Assembly (NCBI GenBank): GCA_020431995.1 | Contig: JAGQHE010000097.1 | Coordinates: 1-20,331 of the forward strand | Origin: Nitrosopumilus sp. | GTDB taxonomy: Archaea > Thermoproteota > Nitrososphaeria > Nitrososphaerales > Nitrosopumilaceae | Direction: 5' to 3' | Length of the DNA: 20,331 bases | In this document: piece by piece, positions 2,953-18,157 of the stretch | Layout of the letters: every line of letters begins with the position of its first letter | Position numbering within the stretch: position 1 is the first letter of the stretch | Translations under genes and position numbers: made by a program | The notes under the pieces: model-generated | Database searches by the model: none | Told to the model about the DNA's origin: nothing | What the model saw: the letters and a program-made list of their open reading frames with translations, nothing else

Positions 2953-3261
2953 TTACAAGGTATTGGATTCCCTTGACAAAGTCTTCATCAGATAAAAGCC
3001 CATGACTCCACCAGTCGGCATTGTTTCTAAGCCATGATGGGATGTGCTCTGAAGCATCATATGTTGTGCCCGTAGGAGCATATGTAGAGTTCCCTTTTGT
3101 AGGAGGTATTGCAGTCCCTTGACAAAGTCTGTGTCAGAGATCTGAGAGGTAGACCACCATTTTGCGTTGTTTTTTACCCAGTCAGGGATTTCATGGGTCA
3201 ATCCAAACGAATTCATCGGGAAAAACAAGAGAATCACAAACAAAACAACAGCCCATTTCAT
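2953..3261 (-). CDS. Signal peptide plus first 'IPDWVKNNAKWW..SDxDFVKGLQYL' repeat; probable detached N-terminus of the SNase gene
   Basis: The ORF starts MKWAVVLFVILLFFPMNSFG (signal peptide), followed by IPDWVKNNAKWWSTSQISDTDFVKGLQYLLQKG. After about nt 3090 this frame becomes implausible (TLHMLLRAQHMMLQSTSHHGLETM). The -1 frame over the same bases reads STYAPTGTTYDASEHIPSWLRNNADWWSHGLLSDEDFVKGIQYLVNNGIIHVSQNGMPCLGNG and runs straight into ORF 2357..2920. Confidence 0.6.
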   Translation of the reverse strand: MKWAVVLFVILLFFPMNSFGLTHEIPDWVKNNAKWWSTSQISDTDFVKGLQYLLQKGTLHMLLRAQHMMLQSTSHHGLETMPTGGVMGFYLMKTLSRESNTL

Positions 3262-3458
3262 TCATAGAATACAAGCATGTTTTTTGTTATAACATTTTTC
3301 CAAGCCAATTCAGGGTCAATTCTTGACAAATTCATTGTTTTGTGTCAGAATTGTTGTTTCCATGCAGATGTATTTACCGACATGCTACAAAGTCAGACAA
3401 AACCGCAGACCTCAATTTTCTAGATCAAGCTTATTTATCACGAGAACCATACAGATAC

Positions 3459-3872
3459 ATGGCCGAGACTAATGAGTCAGAAAATATTTTTACAGAATGC
3501 AAGAAGAATACCGAGAGATTTTTCAACGAGATTGACAAGTCCTCGCCGGTTTACCATCAGATAGCAACCGACATTCAGAGAAGCTATCTTGACGCATGGA
3601 AGAACGTGATCGAATCATCCATTGCCTTGCAACAAGAATATGCTGCCAAGACAGGCCTGAATGTAAGCATGCCGGAAGAAACCATGAAAGAAATCCACAG
3701 CATAATGGAGAAAGCATCCAAGGCATACCAAAATCAAAACAAGTTTGTCTTCGATTCCACTGAGACATCAAAAAAAATATTTGACATATTCAGTGAAAAC
3801 ACCAAGATATTCAGCTCGCTGAACAAAAACATGATTGATCTGATGACATCCAGCATGAAAAAACGCGCCTGA
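3459..3872 (+). CDS. Hypothetical all-helical protein (phasin-like impression only)
   Basis: The track ORF is 3342..3872. The first ATG is at 3459 (MAETNESENIF...), and the upstream part of the ORF (SELLFPCRCIYRH) looks non-coding. The sequence is helical and K/E/S-rich with no catalytic motif. The phasin resemblance is only compositional. Confidence 0.5.
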   Translation: MAETNESENIFTECKKNTERFFNEIDKSSPVYHQIATDIQRSYLDAWKNVIESSIALQQEYAAKTGLNVSMPEETMKEIHSIMEKASKAYQNQNKFVFDSTETSKKIFDIFSENTKIFSSLNKNMIDLMTSSMKKRA

Positions 3873-4250: not shown

Positions 4251-4385
4251 ATGAGCAAACAGATCACAAACAGACACATTCAAAGTAAAAACGAGGAAGA
4301 GATATCAAGAAACATTCAGTATTTTGAGGTGTATAGAAAAATGGTCAGCCAGATGGCAAAGAATTCTGAAAAAGAGTACGCCTGA
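4251..4385 (+). CDS. Possible 44-aa small protein
   Basis: An ATG at 4251 opens MSKQITNRHIQSKNEEEISRNIQYFEVYRKMVSQMAKNSEKEYA, ending at TGA 4383-4385. The stop lies inside an 8-bp hairpin (CCTGAATG 4381-4388 / CATTCAGG 4401-4408). The ORF is below the track size cut-off and has no homology support. Confidence 0.2.
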   Translation: MSKQITNRHIQSKNEEEISRNIQYFEVYRKMVSQMAKNSEKEYA

Positions 4386-5167
4386 ATGTAGAACAATGGC
4401 CATTCAGGATCGTGCAGCTTGCGTACAAGCGCATTCCGCCGTTTCCATTTAGAACCATGCTGTTTTCCCATCAGGATTTGAGACATGTTATACAATGACA
4501 GGACTTCAAGCCTGTGAAGGGAACAGCCTTCTACAGGATTCTTGAAGGATTGCAGTTTGTGCACGATTCAGGTATTTATCCATACCATGTTCCAGATCCA
4601 TATCAGACGAGACAGGAATTAAGAAGACATTCTTGTGCACTGATTGCCACTGGTTTTAGGTTTCCCCTCTGCCATCATCATTTGCCTGGCAATACTGATC
4701 TTTACAGCGTTGGAAAATAAGACATTGTGGTTAAACGTGTAGTTGATTCTTGTGTCTCAGAAATGCTTGTTTGGTTTTCTGAAATCAGTTATTTCTGATT
4801 TTTACGTATCAAACATGACAAAAACTGTTAGACAGACTGTCAGACGTATAATTCTCTACTTTTCTACATCCAAAATCCGTATGCATGCACCACTCTTCGC
4901 AAAACCTGTTATGCTTGCGTAGAGTCTACTTTGCCTCACCTTTTTCCGTAGAAGAATTGTAAAACAGGCATAGAAAAACTCACACATCATGCACAATAGG
5001 TTAGAATACTATGAATATCGCAATTTGATCTTTTTCTTGAATTGAAGTATTTTGTTTGGTAACAAACATTTCTCATTAAATTTTGTAATATTTAATAATT
5101 TATGAAAGTATTATGACAGCAAGTCATTACAAAAGTGTTTTAAACCGCAAGCAACAAACTATCATGA

Positions 5168-6187
5168 TTGCCCCCATTTACAAAACCACATGACATTGAT
5201 TTTGTTTTGGATGTCAATACCGAAGTGAATGCGATCAAGAACCTGCAGAGACAGGGAAAATACAAACTGCCAAAAGGGCACGGAAAGAAACTTCTCTGTG
5301 GCACATGGAATATCGCAAACTTTGATGCACAAAAAAGGCCAGACACTGCCATTCCACTGATTGCACAAATTATTGAGCCCTTTGATCTTATTGCCATACA
5401 GGAAATCAATGCGGACTTGACAGGGCTGAGAAAACTGATGAACTTTCTTCCAGATCATTCTGCAATCTTTACTGACATTGCAGGAAACGAGGAGAGGATG
5501 TGCTACCTCTACAAGAAAAAAAGAATCAAACTGACATCTCATGTTGGAGAGCTAGACATTCCGCCATCAAAGAGAAACGGATACAAGGTAAAGTTCAAAG
5601 ACGAGAATGGAGATCCATGCATCCAGAGGTTCTCAGGATTTGACAGAAACCCCTATGTCATAAGCTGGAACTTTAAGGGAACGGAATTTACCGCATACAA
5701 CTGCCACATCTACTTTGGAAAGAAAAAAGAGGAAGACATTATGAAGTTCCGAAGAAGAATTGTAGAGGTTTACTCTCTAGTTGAATGGATTACAAAAAAA
5801 GAGAACAAAAATGACGGAAGCCTGTATTCTTCTAACATTGTACTTTTGGGAGACATGAATGTCCCAGAAATGAAAGATGATGACCAGGTATTCAAGCAAC
5901 TAAACCGCGGAGTGTTTACAGCACTTGACTATACTGACTATCTCACGCCATACTCCAATATCAAAAATGATGCATCATATGACCAGCTAGTCATTGCAGA
6001 GCCGTTCTCAAACAAGATGAAACTGTGCGGGCACGGCATACTTGCATGGGACAATGCAGTATTTGCCAAACTTGCAAGTGACTTGGGAGTAAAGACGTCA
6101 AAGAAAGCAGTGTCCAAGTTTCAGGCATTTGCAAAGTGGGCAATATCTGATCATAGACCTTTGTGGTGTCTGATGGAATTTCAATAG
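5168..6187 (+). CDS. Endonuclease/exonuclease/phosphatase (EEP, DNase I-like) family protein
   Basis: The ordered EEP catalytic motifs are present: GTWNIANF, DLIAIQEI, LLGDMNV and ISDHRPLW near the C-terminus. There is no signal peptide. The start is uncertain: TTG at 5168, with an out-of-frame ATG at 5164. Confidence 0.8.
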   Translation: MPPFTKPHDIDFVLDVNTEVNAIKNLQRQGKYKLPKGHGKKLLCGTWNIANFDAQKRPDTAIPLIAQIIEPFDLIAIQEINADLTGLRKLMNFLPDHSAIFTDIAGNEERMCYLYKKKRIKLTSHVGELDIPPSKRNGYKVKFKDENGDPCIQRFSGFDRNPYVISWNFKGTEFTAYNCHIYFGKKKEEDIMKFRRRIVEVYSLVEWITKKENKNDGSLYSSNIVLLGDMNVPEMKDDDQVFKQLNRGVFTALDYTDYLTPYSNIKNDASYDQLVIAEPFSNKMKLCGHGILAWDNAVFAKLASDLGVKTSKKAVSKFQAFAKWAISDHRPLWCLMEFQ

Positions 6188-6297
6188 ATTGTCAGAAATG
6201 AATTGCATTTTGCCAAGCATGCTAAACGGTGCGAACAGACTTTTTGTCATGCGATAAATCTGCCGTCAAACTGGAAAACAAAAAATGGTCTCAAATT

Positions 6298-6501
6298 TTA
6301 TTGCACGGTGACTTTTTCTTCATACCAGATATAGTCAAAGCTGCTATACATCGACATCCTCCCACACTTGGGGCACTTCCACATGTTTTCAAAAAGCTCT
6401 GACTTGTCTTTAGCTTTGATGAACTCTTGTTTCGTGGCAACAGACTGTATGGGGGATTTATGAAGCGCTTTGCAGGCCTTGCATTCCACTACGGACGTCA
6501 T
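6298..6501 (-). CDS. Small zinc-ribbon protein
   Basis: The track ORF 6298..6612 has a hydrophobic, implausible N-terminus. The internal ATG at 6501 gives 67 aa: MTSVVECKACKAL...WKCPKCGRMSMY, with CxxC...CxxC spacing typical of a Zn ribbon. Confidence 0.5.
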   Translation of the reverse strand: MTSVVECKACKALHKSPIQSVATKQEFIKAKDKSELFENMWKCPKCGRMSMYSSFDYIWYEEKVTVQ

Positions 6502-6984
6502 CGATCTGACTTTTAAAAGACATACTAAAAAACGAAAATCAAAATTAGTTAACCCGCAAACTAGAAACAAAGGCAACAATTGCAACGTTTGCAGGCCAGA
6601 TACAAATTCCATTTGGAGGTGGCATGATTGGTTTTAAACAGGCATCAAGTTAGTTTTACAGATTGCTGCTCCAAGTCAGCAATGCCAAATCGATGCTATG
6701 TTTGATCAAATTTGTTCCGATCCAGCCTCTCTCGGATGCCACAACATGCAAGACGATAAACTCCCAATTTGCACACCCAATCAAATGTGCACAGGCAATC
6801 GCCAAATGAGCGCAGAAAAATGAGCGTATGTTTCATCATTCACAATCAAACTAGTATCCATTATTTCTCACCATATCACATTTCACAAAAAGAATTCTTT
6901 AACAAGTCAAACATGCACAAGTGAATAAGATTAATGGTTGCAAGTCCTAGAAAACTTGTTAAATAACAATTACTTGATTTACTT

Positions 6985-7560
6985 ATGATTTCAAAAATAC
7001 TTGCATTTGCAGGAAGCACCAGAACTGATTCTTTTAACAAAAAACTAGTCAAAGTAGCAGCAGATGGGGCAAAAGAAGCAGGTGCAGATGTAACCATAAT
7101 TGATCTTCGTGACTATCAGATGCCACTTTATGATGAGGATTTAGAAAAACGAGAGGGATTGCCTTCCAGCACAAGGAAACTAAAAGATTTGATGTCAGAT
7201 CATCATGGATTTCTAATATCATCTCCAGAATACAACAGTTCAATTTCGGGAGTTCTCAAAAACACAATTGATTGGACATCAAGGCAAGGCGATGATGAAT
7301 TACCAAGGTCTTGTTTTAAAGGCAAAGTGGCAGGAATATTGAGTGCGTCGCCTGGTGGATTGGGAGGACTGCGAGGACTGGTTCATGTTCGTGCAATTCT
7401 TGAGAATATGGGAGTAATGGTAATTCCAGATCAAGTAGCAATATCAAAAGCTAATGAGGCTTTTAATTTGGATGGGTCTATGAAAGAACAAAGACAAGAA
7501 CAGCAAGTAAAAAAAATTGGATCTAATCTTGCTCAGATATTATTGAAACTAAATAACTGA
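6985..7560 (+). CDS. NAD(P)H-dependent FMN reductase family oxidoreductase
   Basis: The flavodoxin-like pattern is present: KILAFAGSTRTDSFNKKL, then GFLISSPEYNSSISGVLKNTIDWTSR, then the GGLGG loop. This is typical of the FMN_red family (SsuE/YieF/ArsH-like). Confidence 0.85.
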   Translation: MISKILAFAGSTRTDSFNKKLVKVAADGAKEAGADVTIIDLRDYQMPLYDEDLEKREGLPSSTRKLKDLMSDHHGFLISSPEYNSSISGVLKNTIDWTSRQGDDELPRSCFKGKVAGILSASPGGLGGLRGLVHVRAILENMGVMVIPDQVAISKANEAFNLDGSMKEQRQEQQVKKIGSNLAQILLKLNN

Positions 7561-8117
7561 AATCACGCCCGTCTACATCCGTTTTCATCTCCAAAATGGT
7601 GGGACCCACGTGTGACATCCTAACGTAAGTGGCGCCAACATGTACAGAGACAGGATCATGGAACGCCTAATAGCACGTAACTGGATGCAGTACCGGCAGA
7701 AGTCTCATTTTAAAAACAGATCACATGATCTACAGACACATCAAAGAAAATCAGAGATGTCCGAGCACAAGATCAAACACCATATCAATTGCAGGATTAT
7801 ATGAGATTGTTCAGAGGGTGGTTTTATTTCACAGTCACTGGTCTTTCCAGTCACATCTTTTCCAATGTTCTGGTTATCACCGTCGTTTTAATTCTAATTT
7901 TTATTTTTTCAGCCCTAAAGGATTTCAAAAACTAATTTTTTGGCTCAATCTCCACAGTAAATGTTTGAACAGCAATCTTTCCATCGCTCATAACAAATGT
8001 GTCAGTTCCTAGTGGAAAACAAAAATTTGATTTGTGTGTACATTTGGAAGCGCATCTGCTGAAATTCCAAAAATTGCCACTAAAAAAACTGTGATTAGTT
8101 TGGCAGTACTTTTTTGT

Positions 8118-8306
8118 TCAAACATTTTTTTGTACTACCAAACATTGATCACAGATTGCGCCATAATCTTCTTCAACTAATGTAACTGGCACGTTGCTGC
8201 TAAAGCATCTGTGACACATACCACGTAGCCTTACTCGTTCAAAAGACAGGGAGGGAAAGGCATCTCTTCCCCTCCTTGAAGGTTGAATCGATGTTCTTTG
8301 ACTCAT
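8118..8306 (-). CDS. Small Cys-containing (CxxC...CxxC) protein, translationally coupled to the upstream ORF
   Basis: The internal ATG at 8306-8304 overlaps the TGA (8305-8303) of ORF 8303..8524 as ATGA. The protein contains CHRC...CDQC. Confidence 0.45.
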   Translation of the reverse strand: MSQRTSIQPSRRGRDAFPSLSFERVRLRGMCHRCFSSNVPVTLVEEDYGAICDQCLVVQKNV

Positions 8307-8524
8307 GCCAGCGCCGCTATTGCGTGACAAAGTGTCTCACCGCACATGCAATCACTGTGAAATTTGGCTTCGGTTGTAGCAGCACATTCTGAACAGATCA
8401 TCTGCACAGATTGGCGGCATTGCGGACATTTCTCACATGTTTGCAGGTCTCCTCCACACCGTCTGCACAAAGTGTCTGGCATTTTGTATCGCCTCATGGA
8501 AAGTTGCGTCTTCCGATTCTCCAT
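8303..8524 (-). CDS. Cys-rich multi-zinc-ribbon protein
   Basis: The 73-aa ORF reads CRRCGGDLQTCEKCPQCRQSVQMICSECAA...CMCGETLC, with four closely spaced Cys pairs. It lies on the same strand as hsp20 and downstream of it (108-nt gap, 8525-8632). Confidence 0.5.
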   Translation of the reverse strand: MENRKTQLSMRRYKMPDTLCRRCGGDLQTCEKCPQCRQSVQMICSECAATTEAKFHSDCMCGETLCHAIAALA

Positions 8525-8632
8525 TTGATTATAGCTTCTTCTGGAAGTGAGGAAATTTTTTCAAATGAAGTTCTGACAGTGTCTCTTATTTTTGAGATGG
8601 ATGAACAATCCTTCATCGTTTTCACCTCTTGC

Positions 8633-9139
8633 CTATTCTACTGACACAACTCTTCCTTTTGGCTTGTCTTCTGTAAGCTTGAAGGTCAGTTCCAGTATTC
8701 CGTTTGTGTACTTTGCTTTTGCGGAGTTTTCATCGATCTTGTACTTGATTGGCACATGTGCCTCGTATTTCCTGTTTTCATTTTTGGTCTTGATTGTTAC
8801 AGCCTTTTCCTCAATTGACACATCAATGTCTGATTTTTCAATACCTGGCATTTCTGCTACCAGTTTGAGTGTGTTGTTTTCGCTATCAAGTACTTCATCT
8901 ACATATGGTTCCTTGACATCTGAAGAGGACGCAGGAAGTAGATTTCTGGGCCTGACATTGCCATACTCCTTGACAACAGGTTTTCCATCAGGTCCAACAG
9001 TCATTGTATAGCCATAATAATAGGGACCTACTGTCTGGTTTCTGTTTCCAAACCAGTTGTTTTCAAAGATGTCGTCCCAGTTAAAAAAGCGGTCAGACAT
9101 TCTTCGAAACTCTCTATCAAAGGGTTCATCAAACCACAT
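8633..9139 (-). CDS. hsp20: Small heat-shock protein, Hsp20/alpha-crystallin family
   Basis: An alpha-crystallin domain is present: LKLVAEMPGIEKSDIDVSIEEKAVTIKTK...YEAHVPIKYKIDENSAKAKYTNGILELTFKL. The gene is divergent from the thermosome gene. Confidence 0.9.
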   Translation of the reverse strand: MWFDEPFDREFRRMSDRFFNWDDIFENNWFGNRNQTVGPYYYGYTMTVGPDGKPVVKEYGNVRPRNLLPASSSDVKEPYVDEVLDSENNTLKLVAEMPGIEKSDIDVSIEEKAVTIKTKNENRKYEAHVPIKYKIDENSAKAKYTNGILELTFKLTEDKPKGRVVSVE

Positions 9140-9157
9140 TCATTTATCACCGAGTAT

Positions 9158-9240
9158 ATGTAATAGATGTGACAAAATATAAAGATTTTGCACATATTAT
9201 CTATAATTGACTAGATGTAATATATATGACAAAATTAAAA
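9158..9240. promoter_or_regulatory. Two 26-nt direct repeats in the divergent hsp20/thermosome promoter region
   Basis: 9158-9183 reads ATGTAATAGATGTGACAAAATATAAA and 9215-9240 reads ATGTAATATATATGACAAAATTAAAA, matching at about 22 of 26 positions. Each repeat ends in an A/T-rich TATA-like segment. Confidence 0.35.
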
Positions 9241-9275
9241 TTATGGAATTGTAATTAATTGGATTTGGTGATTTA

Positions 9276-10916
9276 TTGTCACAGCAACATATACCCGTGG
9301 TTCTTCTAAAGGAAGGATCCACTGAAACAAAAGGGCACGATGCCCAGAAAAACAATATCCAAGCCGCAAAGCTGGTGGCCGAACTGGTCAAGACAAGCCT
9401 AGGTCCGCGAGGAATGGACAAGATGATTGTTGATTCCCTAGGGGATGTAACCATAACAAATGATGGTGCTACAATCCTCAAGGAGATCGACGTCCAGCAT
9501 CCAGCCGCAAAGATGATGGTCGAGATCTCAAAGACTACAGATAACGAGGTAGGAGATGGTACCACATCTACTGTGATTCTGGCAGGTTCTCTGTTAGACA
9601 AAGCACAGGAGCTAACAGAGAAGAACGTTCATCCCACGATAGTGGTAAACGGTTTTAAAAAAGCAGCTGACAAGGGATTGGAAATTCTAAGAAGCGTAGC
9701 AGTCAAGGTTGACCCAGAAGACAAGGCATTTCTGAAAAAGATAGCAAAGACAACAATGGAGTCCAAGATCACGACATCCGATTCCAAGATGCTCTCCGAA
9801 GTAGTTGTGGAAGCCATTCTTGCAGTAAGTGAAAAGCAGAACGGCAAGACAAAGGTTGACATTGGCAACATCAAAGTCGAGAAGAAGGCAGGAGGCTCCA
9901 TGAAGTCAACAGAACTGGTTCAAGGAATTATCTTGGACAAGGAAATTGTTCACGGTGCAATGCCAAAACAGATCAAGACAGCAAAGATTGCACTTGTAAA
10001 CTGCCCATTGGAGATTGAGAAGACAGAGTTTGATGCCAAAATCAACATCAACTCTCCTGATCAAATGCAGCAGTTCATAGACGAGGAGAACAGGATGCTC
10101 AAAAAACTTGTGGATCAGGTTGCAGCGTCTGGTGCAAATGTTCTGCTGTGTCAGAAGGGAATAGACGACATGGCACAGCATTATCTTACGAAGGTTGGAA
10201 TCATGGCAGTAAGAAGAATAAAAGAAAGCGACATGATCAAGCTTTCAAAGGCAACAGGTGCCAGAATAATTACGAACATTGCTGAGCTTACAAAAGAGGA
10301 TCTTGGTGCTGCAGAGATTGCAGAAGAGAGAGAGGTTGAGACCGACAAGTGGGTGTTCATCGAGGGATGCAAGAACCCAAAAGCCGTAAGCATTCTTGTC
10401 AGGGGAGGTTCTCAGAGGATAGTAGACGAGGTGGACCGCTCCATCCATGATGCCTTGATGGCAGTAAAGGATGTTGTCACAAACCCGCATGCGCTGGTTG
10501 GCGCAGGCGCTCCCGAGGCATTCGTTGCAAACAAGCTAAGGGACTGGTCAAATTCGCTAGAGGGACGCTCTCAACTTGCAGCCCAGAAATTCGCAGATGC
10601 CATAGAGAACATGGCAGTGATCTTGGCTGAAAGCGCAGGGATGGATCCGCTTGATGCGCAAGTTCAGTTAAGACAAAAGGCAACTGACGGCAGGGCAGTA
10701 TATGGTATTGATGTCGAGAATGCAATGGTTGCAGACATGTCAAAAAGCGACATCTATGATCCGTTGGCCGTAAAAGAGCAGGTAATCAATGGCGCAACGG
10801 AGGTTGCATGCATGATTCTTAGAATCGATGATGTCATAGCAGGAAGCAAAAGCATGGCCCCATCAGGTCCTCCAGGAGAAAGGATGGGCGGAATGCCTCC
10901 AGGAATGGATATGTAA
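9276..10916 (+). CDS. ths: Thermosome subunit (group II chaperonin)
   Basis: 546 aa with a TTG start. Canonical motifs are present: [25 protein letters not shown], plus a [10 protein letters not shown]-terminal tail. Confidence 0.97.
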
Positions 10917-10960
10917 TTCCATTTTCTTTTTTATTTTTACCACAAGTCAAAATGCAGGGA

Positions 10961-11120
10961 CATTTCCTCACATGGCATGCTCTTGACAAACCATGAGTCT
11001 AAAGACAACATGAGGGATGGATCAGGGTATCTTTGAGGATGATTTTAGAATTCTTTACCGAAATGGAATGATCATCCTTTTAGAAATTTTATGTAGTGGC
11101 TCATTTGTTCTTTGAGTCAT
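10961..11120 (-). pseudogene. cas1: Heavily degraded second copy of the Cas1 N-terminal region
   Basis: The minus strand from the ATG at 11120 aligns in three shifting frames with the 15172 copy. MTQRTNE / HYIKFLKG* / KNSKIILKDTL / DSWFVKSMPCEEM corresponds to MTLKNQKNHYNVKLLQGYG...KNSKIVLKNGL...EEWFVKNMPYEKI. A 23-nt core matches at 22 of 23 positions (10972-10994 vs 15013-15035). The relic contains in-frame stops and indels. Confidence 0.55.
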
Positions 11121-11192
11121 TTTTGAAATTAAAAGATGGACAAAAGTATGGGAATGCTTTTTAGGTTATCATTCAGAATTTTTAGATGTATT

Positions 11193-11254
11193 CAAGAAGC
11201 AGGTTCACATGATTCTTGACTCTTGGGTCAAACAAGAGATCGTCCTGCTTCTTG
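11193..11254. repeat. 62-nt nested inverted repeat (long imperfect hairpin)
   Basis: The outer arms CAAGAAGCAGG (11193-11203) and CCTGCTTCTTG (11244-11254) are perfect complements. The inner palindrome TTGAC-TCTTGG-GTCAA sits at the centre. Confidence 0.6.
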
Positions 11255-11402
11255 ATTGTATATTAAATCATTTATGATTAAAAAGGGATACGTAGAATTT
11301 GTTAGTCTTTCAGTCATCAATTCATAATGATTTTAAAATGACCCTGAACTTTCTCCAACAAATCATAACTTACGTAATTGTCTGGCATGGCAAACTCAGG
11401 AA

Positions 11403-11429
11403 CAAAAACGGTGATGCCATTTTTACTCT
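11403..11429 (-). repeat. Distal copy of the aEF-2 3'-terminal sequence (att/TSD-like direct repeat)
   Basis: The minus strand reads AGAGTAAAAATGG-CATCACCGTTTTTG. Its first 13 nt are identical to the aEF-2 end (15971-15959), and the next ~15 nt resemble the sequence that follows it there (TATGCCCCCGTTTTG). Confidence 0.45.
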
Positions 11430-11539
11430 GCCGATTAAAATGCAGAGTCGTCTTCACAGGCACAAAAAACGCAACATAACTAGTGCAATGATGTGGGTTT
11501 GTTTGTTGAAGATTTTTTAAAAAGGGATAACGCATCAAA

Positions 11540-12034
11540 ATGTTATTGGCAAAATTAGAAAATTATGAACTCTCAGATTCACAAATAAAAAACGGATTAA
11601 AGAAAGCTCTCCTAGGGTCTATCGAACTGTCTGGATATGCAAAGTATATTCTTGAACGAAACGGAAACACTACATTATCTTTAGGGTTGTATTCCTTTGC
11701 AATTGGAGAATATGGCAAGTATGAGATTCTCAGGGAATTTCTTTCAGAATCTGTAAAAAGACACCACATACCAAAAGTAATTTTTGATGTAAAAAATTTC
11801 AAGATTAATTTTAAAAAAGCGTTGGATACGTTGCCTAGGAGCATAACTGAGAATCTTTCGAATGATCTGTCATTGGACTTGCAATCCAAAATGAGTTATT
11901 TCAATCTAACATGGGATCAAGAAAAAGAAAAATGGAATGCTCCTCCAAAAATTGATTCATCTCTACTGTCAGAGTCATTGATTTCATTTGAAAAACATGT
12001 TTCTGTGAAACTAGATTCTGAATATGACAGTTAA
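11540..12034 (+). CDS. Hypothetical protein, AbiV-like (abortive-infection family) impression
   Basis: 164-aa ORF preceded by an A/T-rich TATA-like box about 23 nt upstream, which suggests a leaderless transcript. The N-terminal helix pair IKNGLKKALLGSIELSGYAKYILE...LSLGLYSFAIGEYGKYEILREF resembles the AbiV hallmark (A..L..A..L....A.EE.GK...L). This is recalled from memory of the family and not verified. Confidence 0.45.
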   Translation: MLLAKLENYELSDSQIKNGLKKALLGSIELSGYAKYILERNGNTTLSLGLYSFAIGEYGKYEILREFLSESVKRHHIPKVIFDVKNFKINFKKALDTLPRSITENLSNDLSLDLQSKMSYFNLTWDQEKEKWNAPPKIDSSLLSESLISFEKHVSVKLDSEYDS

Positions 12035-12209
12035 AGAACAGCAGGATCATTACAACGTGAAAAGACTACGGTCATTCTGAACATGTAAAAAATTCACAAA
12101 AACTAAAATCAGACCACAATCCTTTCTCTAATCAACTACAAAGCATTGGTTGTCAATGTTATTTGTATTCGAAAAGTATTGGATATGCTGGGTTTATCTC
12201 ATTTATTTA

Positions 12210-12503
12210 TCAAAAGTGGATCCACGTTACAAACAGAAAAGAAGATACGTATCCAAATTCCACCCAAATGAACAGTCGACATCCAACAGCACTCCTAGTA
12301 CCACATCTAGATCCTATTGTAAATTTCCACCCATAAGAATCAGGAGCATTGACATTATCAGGTCTAAGACTTGTAGGCCAAGTAAAACAATATCTCCCTC
12401 CTCCACACTTACTAGCAAGTTTGAAAAAATCTGGAGATAAAATACCGACTGTACTTGTACCGTGTTTCTTTATCATCTTTGTCAATGAAATAGAAATTTT
12501 CAT
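12210..12503 (-). CDS. Hypothetical protein (uncertain gene)
   Basis: The 97-aa ORF has protein-like composition (GGGRYCFTWPTSLRPDNVNAPDSYGWKFTIGS). The overlapping + strand ORF 12150..12440 is S/T/R-rich and looks like a shadow ORF. I recognise no family. Confidence 0.3.
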   Translation of the reverse strand: MKISISLTKMIKKHGTSTVGILSPDFFKLASKCGGGRYCFTWPTSLRPDNVNAPDSYGWKFTIGSRCGTRSAVGCRLFIWVEFGYVSSFLFVTWIHF

Positions 12504-12994
12504 TTTTGAGGATTTGTAGAGATCATTAGTTAGAACAAACGGGCGATTCTTAGTGATGAATCCTCAAATGAAGATATTTGAGATGATTACTTTGGCAAAC
12601 TTTTCTCAATCCTTTCAACAAGTTCTTTACTTCTTTAGACACAAATCTCACTAGCGATGTGAATTAAATTTAATGTGTCTAACACATACTCTGCAAATTT
12701 TTGCAAAGATTGTATGTTGTTCTTTGTAAGTTGTTTGTTATCTGACTAGAATTATTTAAATATTTGAAAAAAAATAAATAGCAATTTAAATTCTCAAAGA
12801 TTTGAAAGTTCTTTTTATACTAATCAATGGTAGTCAAAAACTTTCCATTAACAAAACGTCAGGTGTTTTACATGTTTTTCTAATGTATTTATTCTCTTTT
12901 TTGCTGAACTAGATCATTTTCTAATTTTGTGATTCTATCGTGTTGTTCTTTATTTTTATTGCATCTACAGAAATATCAAGTTGATTTATAGCTA

Positions 12995-14422
12995 CTAAGT
13001 CCCTGGAATTTGATCAACATATCGTGTTTCTGCGGATAACACAATATCATAAGCATCGCCATTTTCAAAACTATCAATCGACAACGATATCATGCCATTA
13101 CTAACTGGCAACGTTTGGATTTCAGTAATTACATTGCTAGCAGATGCAGGATTTGGAATACGCATGATATCTGCTTGTATTGTGTTTGCATCATAAGGAT
13201 AATTTTGAATGTTTATCACAACGTTATTTTGATTGCGGTCATAATTACCTACAAGTAGATGAATTTTTTCTGTTTGGTCATTTTTACTTGCTAGTGAAAT
13301 TATGTGGGACCCTAAGCTTTCTGTAAAAATTCTATTCTTATCTAATTCAGCATATGCCTTATATACAAAATAGATGTTCTCGGGGGTTTTATTGTCTTGG
13401 TCAAGCATTCCATTTAATCCATTCCAGCAATTACTCCATACAGACGATCCAGATCCCATGTCCCAGCATGCACGATTTGCAACATCTACATTTGCTTTTT
13501 CAAGTGAGTATAGCCATCGCACAGCCCATCCTGGGACAGACTGATTGTCATTTGAACCATATTCATTGATATGTATCTCTTGAATCTTCAAATTCTGTTT
13601 TTTTTCAAAAGTACTATCTATTATGAAACGCATTTTTTTCACATGTTCGAGCATCGCATCAGGATCATCAAATTCATGCCAAGACAATGCAGTTAGTTCA
13701 AGATTGTTTTCTTCAATATATCTTATAAAATTAGTTAGATGTTGTTCGTCAAATTGATTTGTGCTTGGTGCAACTATTTTAGCATTAGGCACGTGTTTTT
13801 TTATTATATCATGTGTTATTTTAACAATCTCAAATTTTTGGGATTCAGTAAAGCCGTTGAAAATACCATCCGGCTCATTATATACATCATAATAATCTAT
13901 GTGGATTTTATTCTGTACAGTTTTGATCATAAGATCTTCCATAAAATATTCCCAAATAGTTTTAAATTGTTCAAATGATTGAATACAAGTTTTATTAGAT
14001 GAATCACATTCAGATTCTAAATCAAGAGAGTACTGATTATTACTCACCCCATAAACTGAGAAAAACAAATCAGACAGTACAAAAGTGATTTGTGTGTCGT
14101 GCTTTGATCTAACATTGTCATTTACAAAATTATAGATTGGAATAGTACTCATTCTCCATGATTTTGGTTCTAACTGTGAAACAGAATCCAATATTTCATT
14201 TTGGTTGATGATGTCCGGCAAACCATGAATAAACCCTGATTTTAATTTGACTTTGTCAATATTTTCTCCAGCATCAACAATGACAGACGGCATCATACCT
14301 GTGTTGATTAACTTGTTTATGCCGACAGCATCTTGAATTTTATCAGACGAATTTACAGACGTTATGCCAAGAATTAACAATAAGATTACAGATGCGCTTG
14401 TTGCAATGAAAATTTTTTTCAA
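12995..14422 (-). CDS. Secreted glycoside hydrolase, clan GH-A TIM-barrel type (GH39/GH30/GH5-like) with a C-terminal beta-sandwich
   Basis: A signal peptide is present (MKKIFIATSASVILLLILGITSVNS). YYDVYNEPDG matches the clan GH-A 'NEP' acid/base motif. IQEIHINEYGSN is a candidate nucleophile strand, and LSWHEFDD lies between them. The gene is very AT-rich. Confidence 0.6.
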   Translation of the reverse strand: MKKIFIATSASVILLLILGITSVNSSDKIQDAVGINKLINTGMMPSVIVDAGENIDKVKLKSGFIHGLPDIINQNEILDSVSQLEPKSWRMSTIPIYNFVNDNVRSKHDTQITFVLSDLFFSVYGVSNNQYSLDLESECDSSNKTCIQSFEQFKTIWEYFMEDLMIKTVQNKIHIDYYDVYNEPDGIFNGFTESQKFEIVKITHDIIKKHVPNAKIVAPSTNQFDEQHLTNFIRYIEENNLELTALSWHEFDDPDAMLEHVKKMRFIIDSTFEKKQNLKIQEIHINEYGSNDNQSVPGWAVRWLYSLEKANVDVANRACWDMGSGSSVWSNCWNGLNGMLDQDNKTPENIYFVYKAYAELDKNRIFTESLGSHIISLASKNDQTEKIHLLVGNYDRNQNNVVINIQNYPYDANTIQADIMRIPNPASASNVITEIQTLPVSNGMISLSIDSFENGDAYDIVLSAETRYVDQIPGT

Positions 14423-14567
14423 CTATGCGGTTTCAAGCAAACATTCTATCTAAACTTGACGTTAAGCGTAGGCAAATAATCAAGTCACAAGAGAATAAAA
14501 TACATAATCAAGCCATACACGAATTCAAATCTTCTAATCATCACTGCAAATTACTGGTATGCTGGAA

Positions 14568-14812
14568 TTATGATTCGCATCCAATACCGTCTTTATCCCC
14601 ATCAAACCTATGTTGGTCTGGAAGAAGCACTCTGAATTTTTTGCATGGCACATCTTTGCAATCTAAGTCAGGAGGATAAGGTGGGATGCATACATCAGGA
14701 TAAGAAGGATCGCAGTTTTCTGTACTTTGTGTAGTTTTTGGAGCAGACGGGGTAGTCTGAGAAGTTTTAGTTGTGATTGTTGCTTCGCAGATATAATCTG
14801 CTTTTGTAGGTA
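14568..14812 (-). pseudogene. 3' stump of an Excalibur-domain gene, paralogous to the C-terminus of the SNase gene at 2357-2560
   Basis: The +1 frame relative to the Cas1 ORF reads ADYICEATITTKTSQTTPSAPKTTQSTENCDPSYPDVCIPPYPPDLDCKDVPCKKFRVLLPDQHRFDGDKDGIGCES*, with its stop at 14570-14568. It is nearly identical in protein sequence and clearly similar in DNA to 2357-2490. An in-frame stop lies just upstream and there is no start codon. Confidence 0.8.
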
Positions 14813-15172
14813 TTCACATTTCTCAGGATTTCTAAACGTGTCATATTGCGCTATGCGGTATTTTGTGGCAGTTAGTGAATCCATCACGCCATTTAGAAAT
14901 GATATTGGTTTCCCAAAAGTGTCAGTCAAGACAAGATTACGGTTGTTTTGATTTAGTAGAGATAATGCTTCAATGGAAACATATCCTTTTCCAGATAACA
15001 CTATCTTCTCATATGGCATGTTCTTGACAAACCATTCTTCTTTTTCTTGTTCTCCTGTTACATCATGTAAGCCGTTCTTTAGAACGATTTTGGAATTTTT
15101 AAGAGAAATTGAAACTCCGTATCCTTGGAGAAGTTTTACGTTGTAATGATTTTTCTGATTTTTTAAAGTCAA
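14663..15172 (-). pseudogene. cas1: Truncated Cas1 (casposase-like): N-terminal domain and first helix only, about 127 aa
   Basis: The Cas1 N-terminal architecture is present. Beta strands: YNVKLLQGYGVSISLKNSKIVLKNG. The central segment is EKIVLSGKGYVSIEALSLLNQNNRNLVLTDTFGKPISFLNG. The helical domain then opens with TATKYRIAQYDTFRNPEKCEYLQKQIISAK, as in ..R.AQ....d.e.rl.iAk.ii.aKi.NQ. After that the ORF degenerates into a read-through of the Excalibur stump in the wrong frame. The catalytic helical domain is absent. The start is TTG. Confidence 0.7.
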
Positions 15173-15183
15173 TCTGTCTAGAA

Positions 15184-15621
15184 TTAAGAATTTTCAGATG
15201 TTGAAAATGTGTAAGACATAGGTGGAGTTATAGATTGAACATAAGGAGAATCTAAAATTTCTTCCAATATGGAATATGTGTTAATTACTGCAAAATAGAT
15301 ATGCGCCCACCGTGCTTGATTGAAGGGTTTGTCTTTTTCAAACTTGAATGTGTATCCATCTAGAGTAATCTCTTTTGAGGATTTTGTATGAATTCCATTA
15401 GAATGGAGGCAATTTCTAACATATGCAAGAAGATTCAAGATATCTCTTTTTTCATCAGAATTTTGGATTTGTAAAACTGACAGTAGTTTTGTTACTATGT
15501 CGTAATATTGTCTAGGTACATTTTCATCCATACTGGACAAAAGTATTTTGAATAAAGTTTCTATTTGAAACTGAAAATTAGTAATAAATGAAATACGACG
15601 AATGTCATTTTCAACCATCAT
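15184..15621 (-). CDS. C-terminal part of a hypothetical protein with a possible HEPN-like RNxxH motif; probably one gene with 15677..15880
   Basis: The frame stays open upstream of the Met (IKKIINEEQARKLLSNDLGDFHGS-MMVEND...) up to the A8 tract. The sequence is all-helical and contains LLAYVRNCLHSNGIH. The R-to-H spacing is one residue shorter than the canonical HEPN Rx4-6H motif, so the HEPN assignment is weak. Confidence 0.5.
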   Translation of the reverse strand: MMVENDIRRISFITNFQFQIETLFKILLSSMDENVPRQYYDIVTKLLSVLQIQNSDEKRDILNLLAYVRNCLHSNGIHTKSSKEITLDGYTFKFEKDKPFNQARWAHIYFAVINTYSILEEILDSPYVQSITPPMSYTFSTSENS

Positions 15622-15676
15622 AGATCCGTGAAAATCCCCTAGATCGTTACTTAGTAATTTTCGTGCTTGTTCTTCA

Positions 15677-15880
15677 TTAATGATTTTTTTTATCTAATGA
15701 TTCTAGTAAACTCATGTGCATTACTGATGACATACAAAGATGGCAACAACCGTTTAGAATGATATATCTTCCATCATTATCTGGATATCCATATTTTGTT
15801 AATAAGTTAAGAAACTTATTTCTCAATTCTAAAAATTGTTTTTTGTCCTCACTTAATGTAGGAGTGTCATTGAATGGCAA
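15677..15880 (-). CDS. N-terminal part of the same hypothetical protein, ending in the A8 tract
   Basis: The ORF has a TTG start and ends ...LLESLDKKNH*. The stop is created by the reading frame through the homopolymer at 15684-15691 (T8 on the + strand). With seven A instead of eight it reads ...SLDKKIINEEQARKLL... into ORF 15184..15621. Confidence 0.45.
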   Translation of the reverse strand: MPFNDTPTLSEDKKQFLELRNKFLNLLTKYGYPDNDGRYIILNGCCHLCMSSVMHMSLLESLDKKNH

Positions 15881-15942
15881 TACCGTTTTACTTTGAATTA
15901 AATAATTTCTTAAGCTTTACGACAAGCGTCATGTTTTTGTGC

Positions 15943-15971
15943 CCAAAACGGGGGCATACCATTTTTACTCT
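15943..15971 (-). repeat. aEF-2 3' terminus plus adjacent sequence (proximal att/TSD-like repeat)
   Basis: The minus strand reads AGAGTAAAAATGG-TATGCCCCCGTTTTGGGC and includes the last codon and a half and the TAA stop of aEF-2. It is repeated at 11429-11403. A degenerate third copy (CAAAGTAAAACGGTATTGCC) lies at 15897-15878. Confidence 0.5.
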
Positions 15972-18157
15972 TTGTCGATGAACTCGTTGACGCCTGGAGG
16001 GTCTGGCGCAAGCCCTTTTCTTTTCCTAATGTCCGCTACTGCGGATGCCAGCATTGACTTTGGGACCTCTGTCCATTCCTTAAAGGAGGTGTTCCATGTC
16101 GCACGTCCTGCGGTCTGGCCCCTCATCTCCTCAGACAATGTGAACGTCTCAGAGGCAGGAATCTCGCCTACAATGATGCTTGATGCGCCCTTTTGCTGCA
16201 TGTCTAATACCTTGCCACGCTTGCCAGAAAGAACAGTTGCCACGTTTCCGACCAGGTCAGTTGGGACACGTACCTCGATTGCTAGCGTAGGCTCCAGGAC
16301 TGCTGTACCTGCAGTAAGCAACGCGCCCATACATGCCCTGCGTGAGGCGGGTCCAAGCTGTGACAGTCCCCTGTGTGCAGTGTCCTCATGAGGAACAAAG
16401 TGAGTAAATATGAACTTGCAGTTTCTCATCTGCTCCTTGCACAGAGGCCCTTCTTTCATTACTTCTTCAAACCCGGAATTGATAGAGTCAGTTGACTCTT
16501 GTACAAACTGGACACCCTTTGTCCCATTGATCAGTACGTTTCCACGCGAGTCAAACTTCATGACCCTCTTGATAGTATCAGTATCCCATCCAGCCTCTTT
16601 TAGCAAGTCAGCTACAACTTTTTTGTCCTTCATGTCGCTGATTTCGCCGGTCCTAAGCATGTGGGCAATCTTTGGCTCCAGTGGCTCCACCTTCATGAAA
16701 ATCTTGTTGTGCCTGTTAGGGGATTTTGCCATGACTGGTTCGCATGTACCCTTGACAGTCTCCCTGTAGTTAATCAAAGGTTCGGAAGTCACAATCTCAC
16801 ATTTTGCATCCTGGATTCTGTGCGTTGCAACATCAAGGTGCAACACGCCCATCCCGGCAACGATTGTCTCTCCACTTTCCTCATCTATCTTTACAATGAG
16901 GTTTGGATCCTCAATGGTAAGCTGCTTTAGGATTTCTACGAGCTTTGGCAGGTCTTTAGGATGCTTTGGCTCGATGGCGATTTGAACGACAGGTTCTGAG
17001 ACATACTTTACGCCTTCAAACATAGGGATGCCTTTGACTGACGACAATGTGTTTCCGGCTCTTGCCTCTGTCAGCCCTAGCAGTGCAGGGATGTTTCCAG
17101 CCCCCAGCTCTCCTACCTGCTCTCTCTGGTTGCCCATAAAGAAATTGACTGACTGTATTCTTCCTTCCCTTTTGGAATCAATTATGTTTATTGTCTGGCC
17201 GTCTTTGACGACTCCGGAGAACAGCCTGCCAATTGCGACAGGCCCTGCTGCAGGATCCAACACCATGTTCACAATCATCATGATTGTCGGGCCGTCATCA
17301 CTGCATGCAAGAAGTGCCTTTCCAATGTCAGACTCCAAGTCACCCTTCCAGATTTGAGGTATTCTATACTTTACCGCCTCAGGTGGAGAGGGATGATGCT
17401 TTACGACCATCCCAAGTACTGCGTCAGCCAAAGGTGCCTTTTCAACCAAGACATCGACTTTTTCGTTGACATAGGCGTCAATCACATCCTTGAATGTGAT
17501 TCCTTTCTCCTTCATCAAATCCACGTTTATTGCCCATTTGTCTTTTGCAGAACCAAACGTCACGCTTGCGTTCTGAATTGACACTTTCCATTTTTCTTTG
17601 TACTCTGGCTCTGCATAGGTGTCAATTAGTTGGTTAAAGTTGGAAACTACTTCTGCTAGCTGTTGCTGCATTTTTTCAGGAGTCAGTCTGAGCTCCTTGA
17701 TCAGCCTGTCAACCTTGTTGATAAACAAGACAGGCTTTACTCTCTCCTCAAGTGCCATCCTGGTCACGGTCTCAGTTTGAGTCATAATGCCTTCTACGGC
17801 ATCACATACAACTACGGCGCCGTCAATTGCCCTAAGGCTACGGATTACCCTTCCGCTAAAGTCCACGTGTCCGGGCGTGTCAATCATGTTAATGACGTAT
17901 TCCTGACCCTTTTGAGAAAAGAGCAGTGTTACGTTTGCCTGATAAATCGTAATCCCTCTTTGCTGTTCCTCTTTGTCAAAGTCCATTGCAAGAGCCTTTC
18001 CTGCAGCTGAGGGGGCAATAATTCCAGAGTTTGCCAAAAGGCTGTCACTCATTGTGGTTTTACCGTGGTCAACGTGCGCGATTACACCAAAGTTACGAAT
18101 GTTTGCCTTGTTCTTGATAATTTTCATAACCTCTGCTGTTGACTTGAATTTTGCCAT
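15965..18157 (-). CDS. fusA: Translation elongation factor 2 (aEF-2)
   Basis: 730 aa. GTPase motifs AHVDHGKTT, DTPGHVDF and NKVD are present, along with the diphthamide-region motif HEDTAHRG. Confidence 0.97.
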   Translation of the reverse strand: MAKFKSTAEVMKIIKNKANIRNFGVIAHVDHGKTTMSDSLLANSGIIAPSAAGKALAMDFDKEEQQRGITIYQANVTLLFSQKGQEYVINMIDTPGHVDFSGRVIRSLRAIDGAVVVCDAVEGIMTQTETVTRMALEERVKPVLFINKVDRLIKELRLTPEKMQQQLAEVVSNFNQLIDTYAEPEYKEKWKVSIQNASVTFGSAKDKWAINVDLMKEKGITFKDVIDAYVNEKVDVLVEKAPLADAVLGMVVKHHPSPPEAVKYRIPQIWKGDLESDIGKALLACSDDGPTIMMIVNMVLDPAAGPVAIGRLFSGVVKDGQTINIIDSKREGRIQSVNFFMGNQREQVGELGAGNIPALLGLTEARAGNTLSSVKGIPMFEGVKYVSEPVVQIAIEPKHPKDLPKLVEILKQLTIEDPNLIVKIDEESGETIVAGMGVLHLDVATHRIQDAKCEIVTSEPLINYRETVKGTCEPVMAKSPNRHNKIFMKVEPLEPKIAHMLRTGEISDMKDKKVVADLLKEAGWDTDTIKRVMKFDSRGNVLINGTKGVQFVQESTDSINSGFEEVMKEGPLCKEQMRNCKFIFTHFVPHEDTAHRGLSQLGPASRRACMGALLTAGTAVLEPTLAIEVRVPTDLVGNVATVLSGKRGKVLDMQQKGASSIIVGEIPASETFTLSEEMRGQTAGRATWNTSFKEWTEVPKSMLASAVADIRKRKGLAPDPPGVNEFIDKE

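Follow-up and report, generated by a model that had tools for sequence, protein, structure and literature searches.

Behind the aEF-2 gene on contig JAGQHE010000097.1 of Nitrosopumilus sp. (assembly GCA_020431995.1, positions 1 to 20,331, the whole 20,331-nucleotide stretch being called the window here) lies a Cas1-like open reading frame (ORF) that is very probably the dead 5' fragment of a casposase gene, that is, of the gene for the Cas1-family integrase of a family-1 casposon. Taken as a whole, the locus is most aptly regarded as remains of family-1 casposons, in which the catalytic domain, PolB and an assignable right end of an intact element are missing. What is left of the casposon nearest to aEF-2, element A, is the left end, a leader gene with a frameshift and 146 cas1 codons (relic A). 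Judged from its sequence, this fragment is predicted to be able neither to cut and join DNA nor to be moved, because it lacks the three catalytic residues as well as a partner right end.

Residues 16–140 of the ORF match Pfam Cas_Cas1 (PF01867, E 3.2e-10) over profile positions 4–119 of 283, scoring 40.1 bits where the curated cutoff is 22.3. An earlier note, made from the letters of this DNA alone, had named the lack of a significant Cas1 hidden Markov model match as an outcome that would refute it, and had read the ORF as a truncated Cas1 comprising the N-terminal domain and the first helix of the catalytic domain; that reading is borne out by these scores. The matches of TIGR00287 of NCBIfam and of 14 PADLOC Cas1 models are likewise confined to this N-terminal stretch, and full-length relatives align by tblastn to ORF residues 1–132 with E values of 1e-56 to 4e-71. 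The similarity to Cas1 persists to about residue 146 ('QLKLLRL'), at ~14735, after which the sequences diverge. Relic A is 65–78% identical to thaumarchaeal family-1 casposases of PolB-bearing elements, which have a complete length of ~355 amino acids (aa), and as such it belongs to the thaumarchaeal Cas1-family casposase clade, for its N-terminal 146 residues only. Furthermore, a search of ~5.8 billion proteins returned 227 homologues with 56–78% identity over the first ~140 residues only; all of these are thaumarchaeal, and those with a named source come from Nitrosopumilus, Nitrosarchaeum, Nitrosotenuis or Nitrososphaera. Positions 120–283 of PF01867 are missing from the ORF, all three catalytic residues are gone, and in none of the window's reading frames did tblastn with full-length relatives find a remnant of the C-terminal catalytic domain.

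Could the fragment have been left behind by a lost adaptation module of a CRISPR-Cas system (clustered regularly interspaced short palindromic repeats with their Cas proteins)? Generic Cas1 models do match it, but the scores lie far under every subtype-specific cutoff, and its closest relatives are all tied to a protein-primed PolB, to terminal inverted repeats (TIRs) and to aEF-2. The nearest solved structure by sequence, and thus the best match in the PDB, is the casposase of Methanosarcina mazei (6OPM, E 2.4e-6), compared with E 0.008 for the CRISPR Cas1 4N06. Moreover, the window does not hold the combination of Cas1 with Cas2, with or without Cas4, and an array that makes up such a module: no Cas2, Cas4 or effector domain was found in its ORFs of at least 90 aa, 12 unannotated ORFs of 55–94 aa being inspected by eye only, and a tandem or CRISPR-like repeat array, an Rfam family or a tRNA was not detected in the window either. 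This agrees with the earlier statement that cas2, cas4, effector genes and CRISPR repeats are absent, and the chance that we are looking at a CRISPR remnant is practically negligible.

The position of the fragment points to a casposon as well. The complete aEF-2 gene is 89–93% identical to aEF-2 of Nitrosopumilus and Nitrosarchaeum loci, and between the first base of its stop codon and the cas1 start there are 793 nucleotides (nt), cas1 being downstream on the same strand, as had been estimated before (about 0.8 kb). A terminus profile was built from 68 sequences of other genomes that each comprise the aEF-2 end and the TIR tip (consensus ..ATCGACAaAGAGTAAAAAtgGaAtcCCCCC...), and it matches 15983–15908 with E 8.3e-19. 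The 60 bases that follow the stop codon of aEF-2 therefore make up a conserved casposon terminus, which begins at the stop codon and leaves the gene undisrupted; the segment also aligns with the termini of L086, L088 and L091, three of the related loci (numbered with L) that are surveyed below. The 3'-distal region of aEF-2 is the usual target of family-1 casposons (PMC4046053, PMC4779613, PMC6563490), ef-2 being their commonest target, with a tandem pair in Ca. N. adriaticus NF5 (PMC6563490). The target named in the earlier note was thus right for the thaumarchaeal family 1, but not for Methanosarcina, whose casposons target tRNA-Leu genes or intergenic sites and not aEF-2 (PMC4779613). Its proposal of a casposon remnant at the aEF-2 target gains support from the terminus after the stop codon, and from homologues that are accompanied by PolB, TIRs and a duplicated aEF-2 end.

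Within the distance between aEF-2 and cas1, which stands as given, the DNA is not empty: it holds the pseudogene of a ~228-aa casposon gene, split by one extra A in an A8 run (15684–15691). Removing one A restores the frame, and a 228-aa homologue (P0121, 84% identical) spans both small ORFs. A homologue of this gene directly precedes an intact 341-aa cas1 in L091, and in L094 one precedes a cas1 with a length of at least 297 aa; in the Nitrosotalea locus L086 one lies between aEF-2 and a truncated cas1 (residues 1–108), among PolB scraps. No Pfam match was found for the 228-aa gene. The AlphaFold2 model of its protein has a predicted local distance difference test score of 90.8, and its resemblance to HEPN toxins is weak (Foldseek E 0.66, probability 0.8).

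So where does the rest of the ORF come from? A 3' fragment of an SNase/Excalibur gene (SNase') begins exactly at the cas1 breakpoint in another frame, and because of this the last 23 codons of the ORF, PRLLQKLHKVQKTAILLILMYASHLILLT, are an out-of-frame read; they have no Cas1 counterpart and overlap the SNase' reading frame. The remark that the ORF 'stops being Cas1' was accurate as to the end of homology at ~146, to which we can add that this point is a fusion to an SNase gene fragment. SNase' is paralogous to the SNase/Excalibur gene at 2357–2920 of the window, with 80% identity from 14738 to 14571 in tblastn (E 2e-26) and 82% over 173 nt at the nucleotide level, and SNase genes of the same type are located just outside or just inside the casposon ends of L004, L056 and L076. 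The simplest origin of the junction would be a deletion with one end within cas1 and the other within an SNase gene further downstream. A truncation produced by chimeric assembly comes to mind, as the source is a metagenome-assembled genome (MAG), the contigs of this population break around the locus, and there is an abrupt GC step at ~10917. However, the cas1::SNase' junction is crossed by five contigs of five separate metagenome assemblies, at an identity of at least 99.85% (0–2 mismatches), and these run on from the junction into the 475-aa gene behind it. Because five other assemblies reproduce the junction, it is not an assembly artefact, and a chimera as the cause of the truncation is highly improbable.

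Table 1. Positions of the casposon relics and of the other features named in the text (numbering of the window).
Feature	Position	Strand	Remarks
Cas1-like ORF	15172->14663	minus	TTG start, 169 aa
Relic A, family-1 casposase residues 1–146	14735..15172	minus	N-terminal domain and first helix
Nonsense tail of the ORF	14663..14734	minus	23 codons and stop, out-of-frame read through the SNase fragment
SNase', 3' fragment of an SNase/Excalibur gene (residues 132–187, Excalibur Ca-binding end)	14559..14738	minus	abuts the cas1 breakpoint
aEF-2 gene	15965..18157	minus	complete, 730 aa, ends in FIDKE and stop; Pfam GTP_EFTU, EFG_III, EFG_IV, EFG_C
Target site (last ~18 nt of aEF-2 and stop), then left casposon terminus TAAAAATGGTATGCCCCCGTTTTGGGCACAAAAACATGACGCTTGTCGTAAAGC	15908..15983	minus	from the terminus profile
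Pseudogene of the ~228-aa gene	15184..15880	minus	slot between left TIR and cas1; split into ORFs of 67 and 145 aa
Relic B, casposase codons 1–39	12024..12129	plus	frameshifted; inverted relative to A
AbiV-like HEPN gene	11540..12034	plus	intact, 164 aa; occupies the slot that precedes relic B
Left terminus and leader of element B (tentative)	11439..11539	plus	degenerate; stands back to back with element C, the target copy lying between them
Second aEF-2 3' end copy and TIR tip (TTTTAATCGGCAGAGTAAAAATGGCATCACCGTTTT)	11367..11438	minus	degenerate; 'distal' type, T-run precedes
Leader of element C	11121..11366	minus	non-coding, stops in all frames; palindrome AAGCAGG...CCTGCTT, 11180–11267
Relic C, casposase codons 1–58	10955..11120	minus	indels and a stop; ends 39 nt from the thermosome stop codon
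Secreted GH5/39-like glycosidase	12995..14422	minus	475 aa, AT-rich DNA; PDB matches 5u22 and 8uwt at E 2e-14
Casposon PolB relic and right-end subterminal segment	4275..4642	plus	PolB residues ~320–396 at 4427–4642; segment 4275–4378

A truncated gene can still encode something useful, and the Cas1 N-terminal domain might have been kept as a working small protein, for instance as a dominant-negative partner that poisons casposase oligomers and so protects the aEF-2 site. The frame is indeed intact over 146 codons, from a native TTG start that is used by many full-length relatives, the allele is fixed at an identity of at least 99.85% in five assemblies, and many relics in other genomes are open through their homologous part. 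These open frames at other loci are, however, biased by search patterns that need intact motifs, and the breakpoints there are scattered from 31 to 226 rather than placed at the domain boundary. Moreover, the tail of the ORF results by accident from reading another gene out of frame, the ORF's immediate upstream neighbour has a frameshift, the cas1::SNase' junction is shared with no second genome, and relics B and C in the same window (see below) are clearly decaying. We consider a retained protein very unlikely. Little credence can likewise be given to the idea that the N-terminal ORF is expressed as a dominant-negative subunit or target-site guard which blocks further insertion, the aEF-2 3' end then being like a CRISPR leader. 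If it were true, the ORF would be a transposon-derived immunity factor beside an essential gene, and the likeness to a leader would mean that new elements are added beside the aEF-2 end, each adding a target copy, and that the older units decay outward.

Several observations nonetheless weigh against a dead fragment of a family-1 casposon, or against parts of that account. The 146 homologous codons of relic A contain no stops and depart at only 2 of 45 highly conserved positions, where full-length genes do so at 1.15 on average, so that this copy may not be evolving neutrally, or may simply be young. The frameshift in the A8 run is present in this assembly only and, being in a homopolymer, is possibly a sequencing error. 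With the terminus profile, no right TIR or distal target copy in the window could be assigned to element A, and a single deletion would lead one to expect the start of an older cas1 behind the SNase fragment, an arrangement found in L004, whereas none is seen here. A presumed third target copy at 12469–12489 (14/15 nt) had to be dropped too, since an equal chance match occurs at 1079–1092 and the terminus profile misses it. As for tests of constraint, the conserved-position test on relic A showed no excess damage and as such neither proves nor excludes constraint, and the five metagenome copies, being 99.85–100% identical, carry no information for a selection test. That only 2 of the 45 positions deviate does indicate that relic A is young. 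A dead casposase fragment remains the reading that we adopt.

The earlier note envisaged a single casposon remnant. Its casposon identity holds, but the remnant is not a lone one: tblastn with full-length casposases revealed two further decayed cas1 5' fragments in the same 5-kb interval, relics B and C, and these are accompanied by a second copy of the target (Table 1). Besides the match at aEF-2, the terminus profile has its sole other match in the window at 11429–11367 (E 2.4e-4). This copy is 79% identical to 15945–15982 over 38 nt in blastn, aligns with a solo copy in L054, and provides a duplicated target site that flanks elements B and C and does not close element A. In relic B, residues 1–17 and 16–39 are matched in two frames (E 2e-5), and it forms an inverted repeat of 38 nt with the 5' end of relic A. 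The leader of element B contains the motifs 'GGCACAAAAAAC' and 'TTTGTTTGTTGAAG', common to the leaders of L095, L086, L091 and L054, and its terminus gives a weak TIR-profile match at 11437–11499 (+) with E 1.5. Of the TIRs expected at both ends of a casposon, element A thus has the left one (E 8e-19), the weak inverted match belonging to element B. Homologues of the AbiV-like gene (P0130 and P0133) match PF18728 with E values of 8e-10 and 1e-8, and the same order of terminus, AbiV gene and decayed cas1 start is found in L095, another Nitrosopumilus MAG, with 75.5% nucleotide identity over 11496–12036. The cargo gene in the window is intact where the cas1 start has decayed, suggesting that cargo is kept as cas1 decays.

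For relic C, residues 3–58 are matched by tblastn, with 14/14 identical at 11070–11029; in blastn it is similar to relic A (E 2e-8) and to the cas1 of L091 (72%, E 2e-11). The non-coding leader of element C, ~290 nt long behind the target copy, belongs to a stretch that aligns over ~320 nt with L054 7760–8080. It also contains an imperfect palindrome (11132–11310) with core arms at 11180–11203 and 11244–11267, conserved at L054 7950–8003. A small conserved ORF that seemed to lie upstream of relic C was rejected, as there are stops in every frame and the similarity to L054 is that of a nucleotide-level non-coding leader. A presumed TIR tip or target copy at 11916–11945, together with a cas1-like stretch at 11904–11935, turned out to be native AbiV-family coding sequence ('WDxxxxKW') and purine-rich, and the likeness was taken as chance. 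All ORFs of 85 loci were searched against the window by tblastn, and the small ORFs of the interval gave nothing from PHROGs or PADLOC.

The inverted arrangement raises the question whether 15964–11439 could be one non-autonomous composite element with two inverted left ends, movable by a casposase in trans. There is a left terminus at 15908–15966 and a weak inverted one at 11437–11499 beside a distal-type target copy, and the cas1 5' ends are inverted as well. However, the inner terminus is degenerate (E 1.5, with its C-run lost), and the two ends bear different leader genes and hence are not one TIR pair. Furthermore, a second copy is absent from all collections searched, and there is no intact casposase in the window. 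A composite element is therefore extremely unlikely. Separate insertions explain the same layout, which is as repeated insertion at one site predicts.

What is observed here are the homologies, a breakpoint, a frameshift, a terminus and a second copy of the target, and from these we infer the following history. Element C would have been inserted first, and element B next, in the opposite orientation at the same target copy. Element A would have come last and nearest to aEF-2, inserted at the usual site in the last few aEF-2 codons and duplicating these, so that its left terminus, the 228-aa gene and then cas1 came to lie directly behind aEF-2. The earlier insertions would thereby have been pushed outward and have decayed further, B being inverted with its AbiV-like gene intact, and the old copy of the aEF-2 end lying between B and C. 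A later deletion presumably joined cas1 codon ~146 to codon ~132 of the downstream SNase gene, taking away the catalytic domain, PolB and the right end. Translation of cas1 would now run out of frame for 23 codons and then stop, and the 228-aa upstream gene would have gained its frameshift as well.

How common such remains are can be gauged from 78 related loci, obtained in a scan of species-representative genomes with search patterns that need intact motifs and sit in the N-terminal half of cas1. The synteny comparison proposed earlier places aEF-2 beside cas1 in ~30 of the 78, in either orientation: aEF-2 is located either 110–900 nt upstream of cas1 on the same strand, or at the opposite element end, convergent and at a distance of 6–10 kb. 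PolB is present in the fetched flank of 27 of the 78. The reference loci among them are full family-1 casposons with a 354–357-aa cas1, a PF03175 PolB, TIRs of 92–187 nt and a duplicated aEF-2 end. L004 has a 357-aa cas1, a PF03175 protein-primed PolB, 92-nt TIRs and the duplicated aEF-2 end; L015 a 354-aa cas1 and a 626-aa PolB; and L061 has 187-nt TIRs that take in the first ~33 cas1 codons, with a 20-nt duplication (TTCATAGACAAGGAGTAAAA) that is the aEF-2 stop region. Across loci L002–L092, 68 sites share a strongly conserved sequence that covers the aEF-2 stop codon and ~15 nt beyond it, ATCGACA(A/G)AGAGTAAAAA followed by (T/G)(A/G)G.A..CCCCCC. Each occupied locus has it twice; 39 copies continue a real aEF-2 frame, and 29 'distal' ones are preceded by TTTTT. 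The sequence looks like the recognition site plus TIR tip of family-1 casposases.

The cas1 gene of these 78 loci is open over at least 337 aa in 45, has full-length homology with a broken frame in six, and is a 5' fragment only in ~22. Where the 5' relics are not cut by a contig end, they end at residues 31, 32, 35, 58, 61, 65, 70, 74, 77, 81, 82, 85, 88, 94, 108, 118, 125, 128, 129, 134, 138, 140, 158, 159, 206, 216 and 226. None of these breakpoints is favoured at the domain boundary, and their scatter between residues 31 and 226 fits random decay. Relics that were not selected by motif (B and C of the window, the second relic of L062, and L095) carry many frameshifts or stops. That it is the 5' part which is found may be explained by the cas1 start being nearest to the element end and, in one orientation, nearest to the essential gene, and also by the search patterns lying in the N-terminal half. 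Taken together, the survey suggests that across ammonia-oxidising archaea such relics occur about as often as family-1 casposons that are still intact.

A few of the surveyed loci deserve mention in their own right. The intact family-1 casposon of L004 (5271–12318) carries defence-island-like cargo, namely a TIR-domain protein, a DUF4760/SLATT-like membrane protein and a 15-repeat TPR protein. In Nitrosopumilus ureiphilus (L079, CP026995, 346–367 kb), a casposon with a frameshifted cas1 (194 + 153 aa) and a 512-aa PolB adjoins a tyrosine integrase and CorA, not aEF-2. The Nitrosotalea MAG L086 has a second multi-layer pile behind aEF-2 (7880–16200), where three cas1 5' fragments lie together with several PolB scraps and, at 10175–10258, an inverted terminus. 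Furthermore, the gene between the left TIR and cas1 varies by element: it is a 228-aa, possibly HEPN-like gene in element A, an AbiV-like HEPN gene in element B and, at L004 12498–13211 and L080 468–1292, an SNase and a DUF8168 protein. As such, this slot seems to take up variable cargo, of nuclease or defence type.

The interval between 10917 and 15964 has a GC content of 28–37%, against 40–51% in its flanks. Embedded among the relics is the 475-aa glycosidase gene (GC 28–34%), which has no homologue in the 78 related loci and could be cargo or host. No PolB is present within 10917–15964. The loss of PolB and of the catalytic domain suggested earlier thus holds for the element itself, but ~10 kb from the cas1 relics at aEF-2 the window does contain a relic of PolB, in a 1.3-kb stretch without long ORFs. 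This relic is matched over 72 codons (4427–4642) by 18 casposon protein-primed PolBs (best E 7e-9) and is the sole PolB trace in the window; the segment at 4275–4378 is 75% identical to L095 7886–7989, which adjoins the right TIR there. The distance and relative orientation of the PolB relic and relic C would fit one L015-type element, and the host genes between the two could be due to rearrangement, insertion or mis-assembly at the GC step (~10917). This host-like block (4700–10916, GC 38–49%) encodes an EEP nuclease/phosphatase, a Zn-ribbon protein, an FMN reductase, Hsp20 and the thermosome. On the far side, the genes at 1458–2270, 2357–2920, 2953–3261 and 3342–3872 have homologues within a few kb of cas1 relics or casposon ends elsewhere, and may represent the flank that usually lies on the far side of the aEF-2 insertion site. 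A 220-aa protein (516–1178, +) matches the PADLOC candidate defence family PDC-M14B with E 1e-9.

What does this locus add? The relics are a further case of a known type, tandem family-1 insertion at ef-2 having been published already, and they leave knowledge of the casposon mechanism unchanged. New here are a well-dissected three-layer relic array and a survey of relic frequency, so that novelty is limited. The locus is nevertheless a clean example of how a casposon dies: deletions anchored at the end nearest to the essential gene leave the 5' part of cas1, the transposition genes are lost first, and a defence-type cargo gene (the AbiV-like HEPN gene) stays intact. Repeated insertion makes the region behind aEF-2 a small variable island. 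For annotation this carries a warning, in that short 'CRISPR-associated endonuclease Cas1' calls beside aEF-2 in Nitrosopumilales are casposon debris and not evidence of CRISPR immunity.

The closest known systems are the family-1 casposons NitAR1-C1, NitAR2-C1 and NitNF5-C1/C2 (Krupovic 2014, 2016, 2019), which share with the window the Cas1 clade (65–78% identity), the target at the aEF-2 3' end and the terminus sequence. Elements are stacked at one site in the window as they are in N. adriaticus NF5, and nuclease and HEPN-type cargo is found here as in NitEve-C1. In contrast to these, the window element keeps 146 of ~355 casposase codons, has no PolB, right end or catalytic residues and is fused to an unrelated gene fragment, and its stacked neighbours are cut to 39 and 58 codons. 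The solo-TIR remnants and inactivated tandem copies of Methanosarcina (Krupovic 2016, PMC4779613) are likewise degraded remains at a reused site, at least as common as intact elements, where new insertions push older ones outward. However, those belong to family 2, with an RNA-primed PolB and tRNA-Leu or intergenic targets, and the remains in the window include the cas1 5' end and cargo genes rather than a TIR alone. Finally, the pile-ups of Tn7 at attTn7 downstream of glmS similarly result from insertion past an essential gene without disrupting it, and reuse of that site builds an island of partly inactivated elements; the casposon differs in that its integrase is of the Cas1 family, unrelated to TnsABCD, and in that it is self-replicating.

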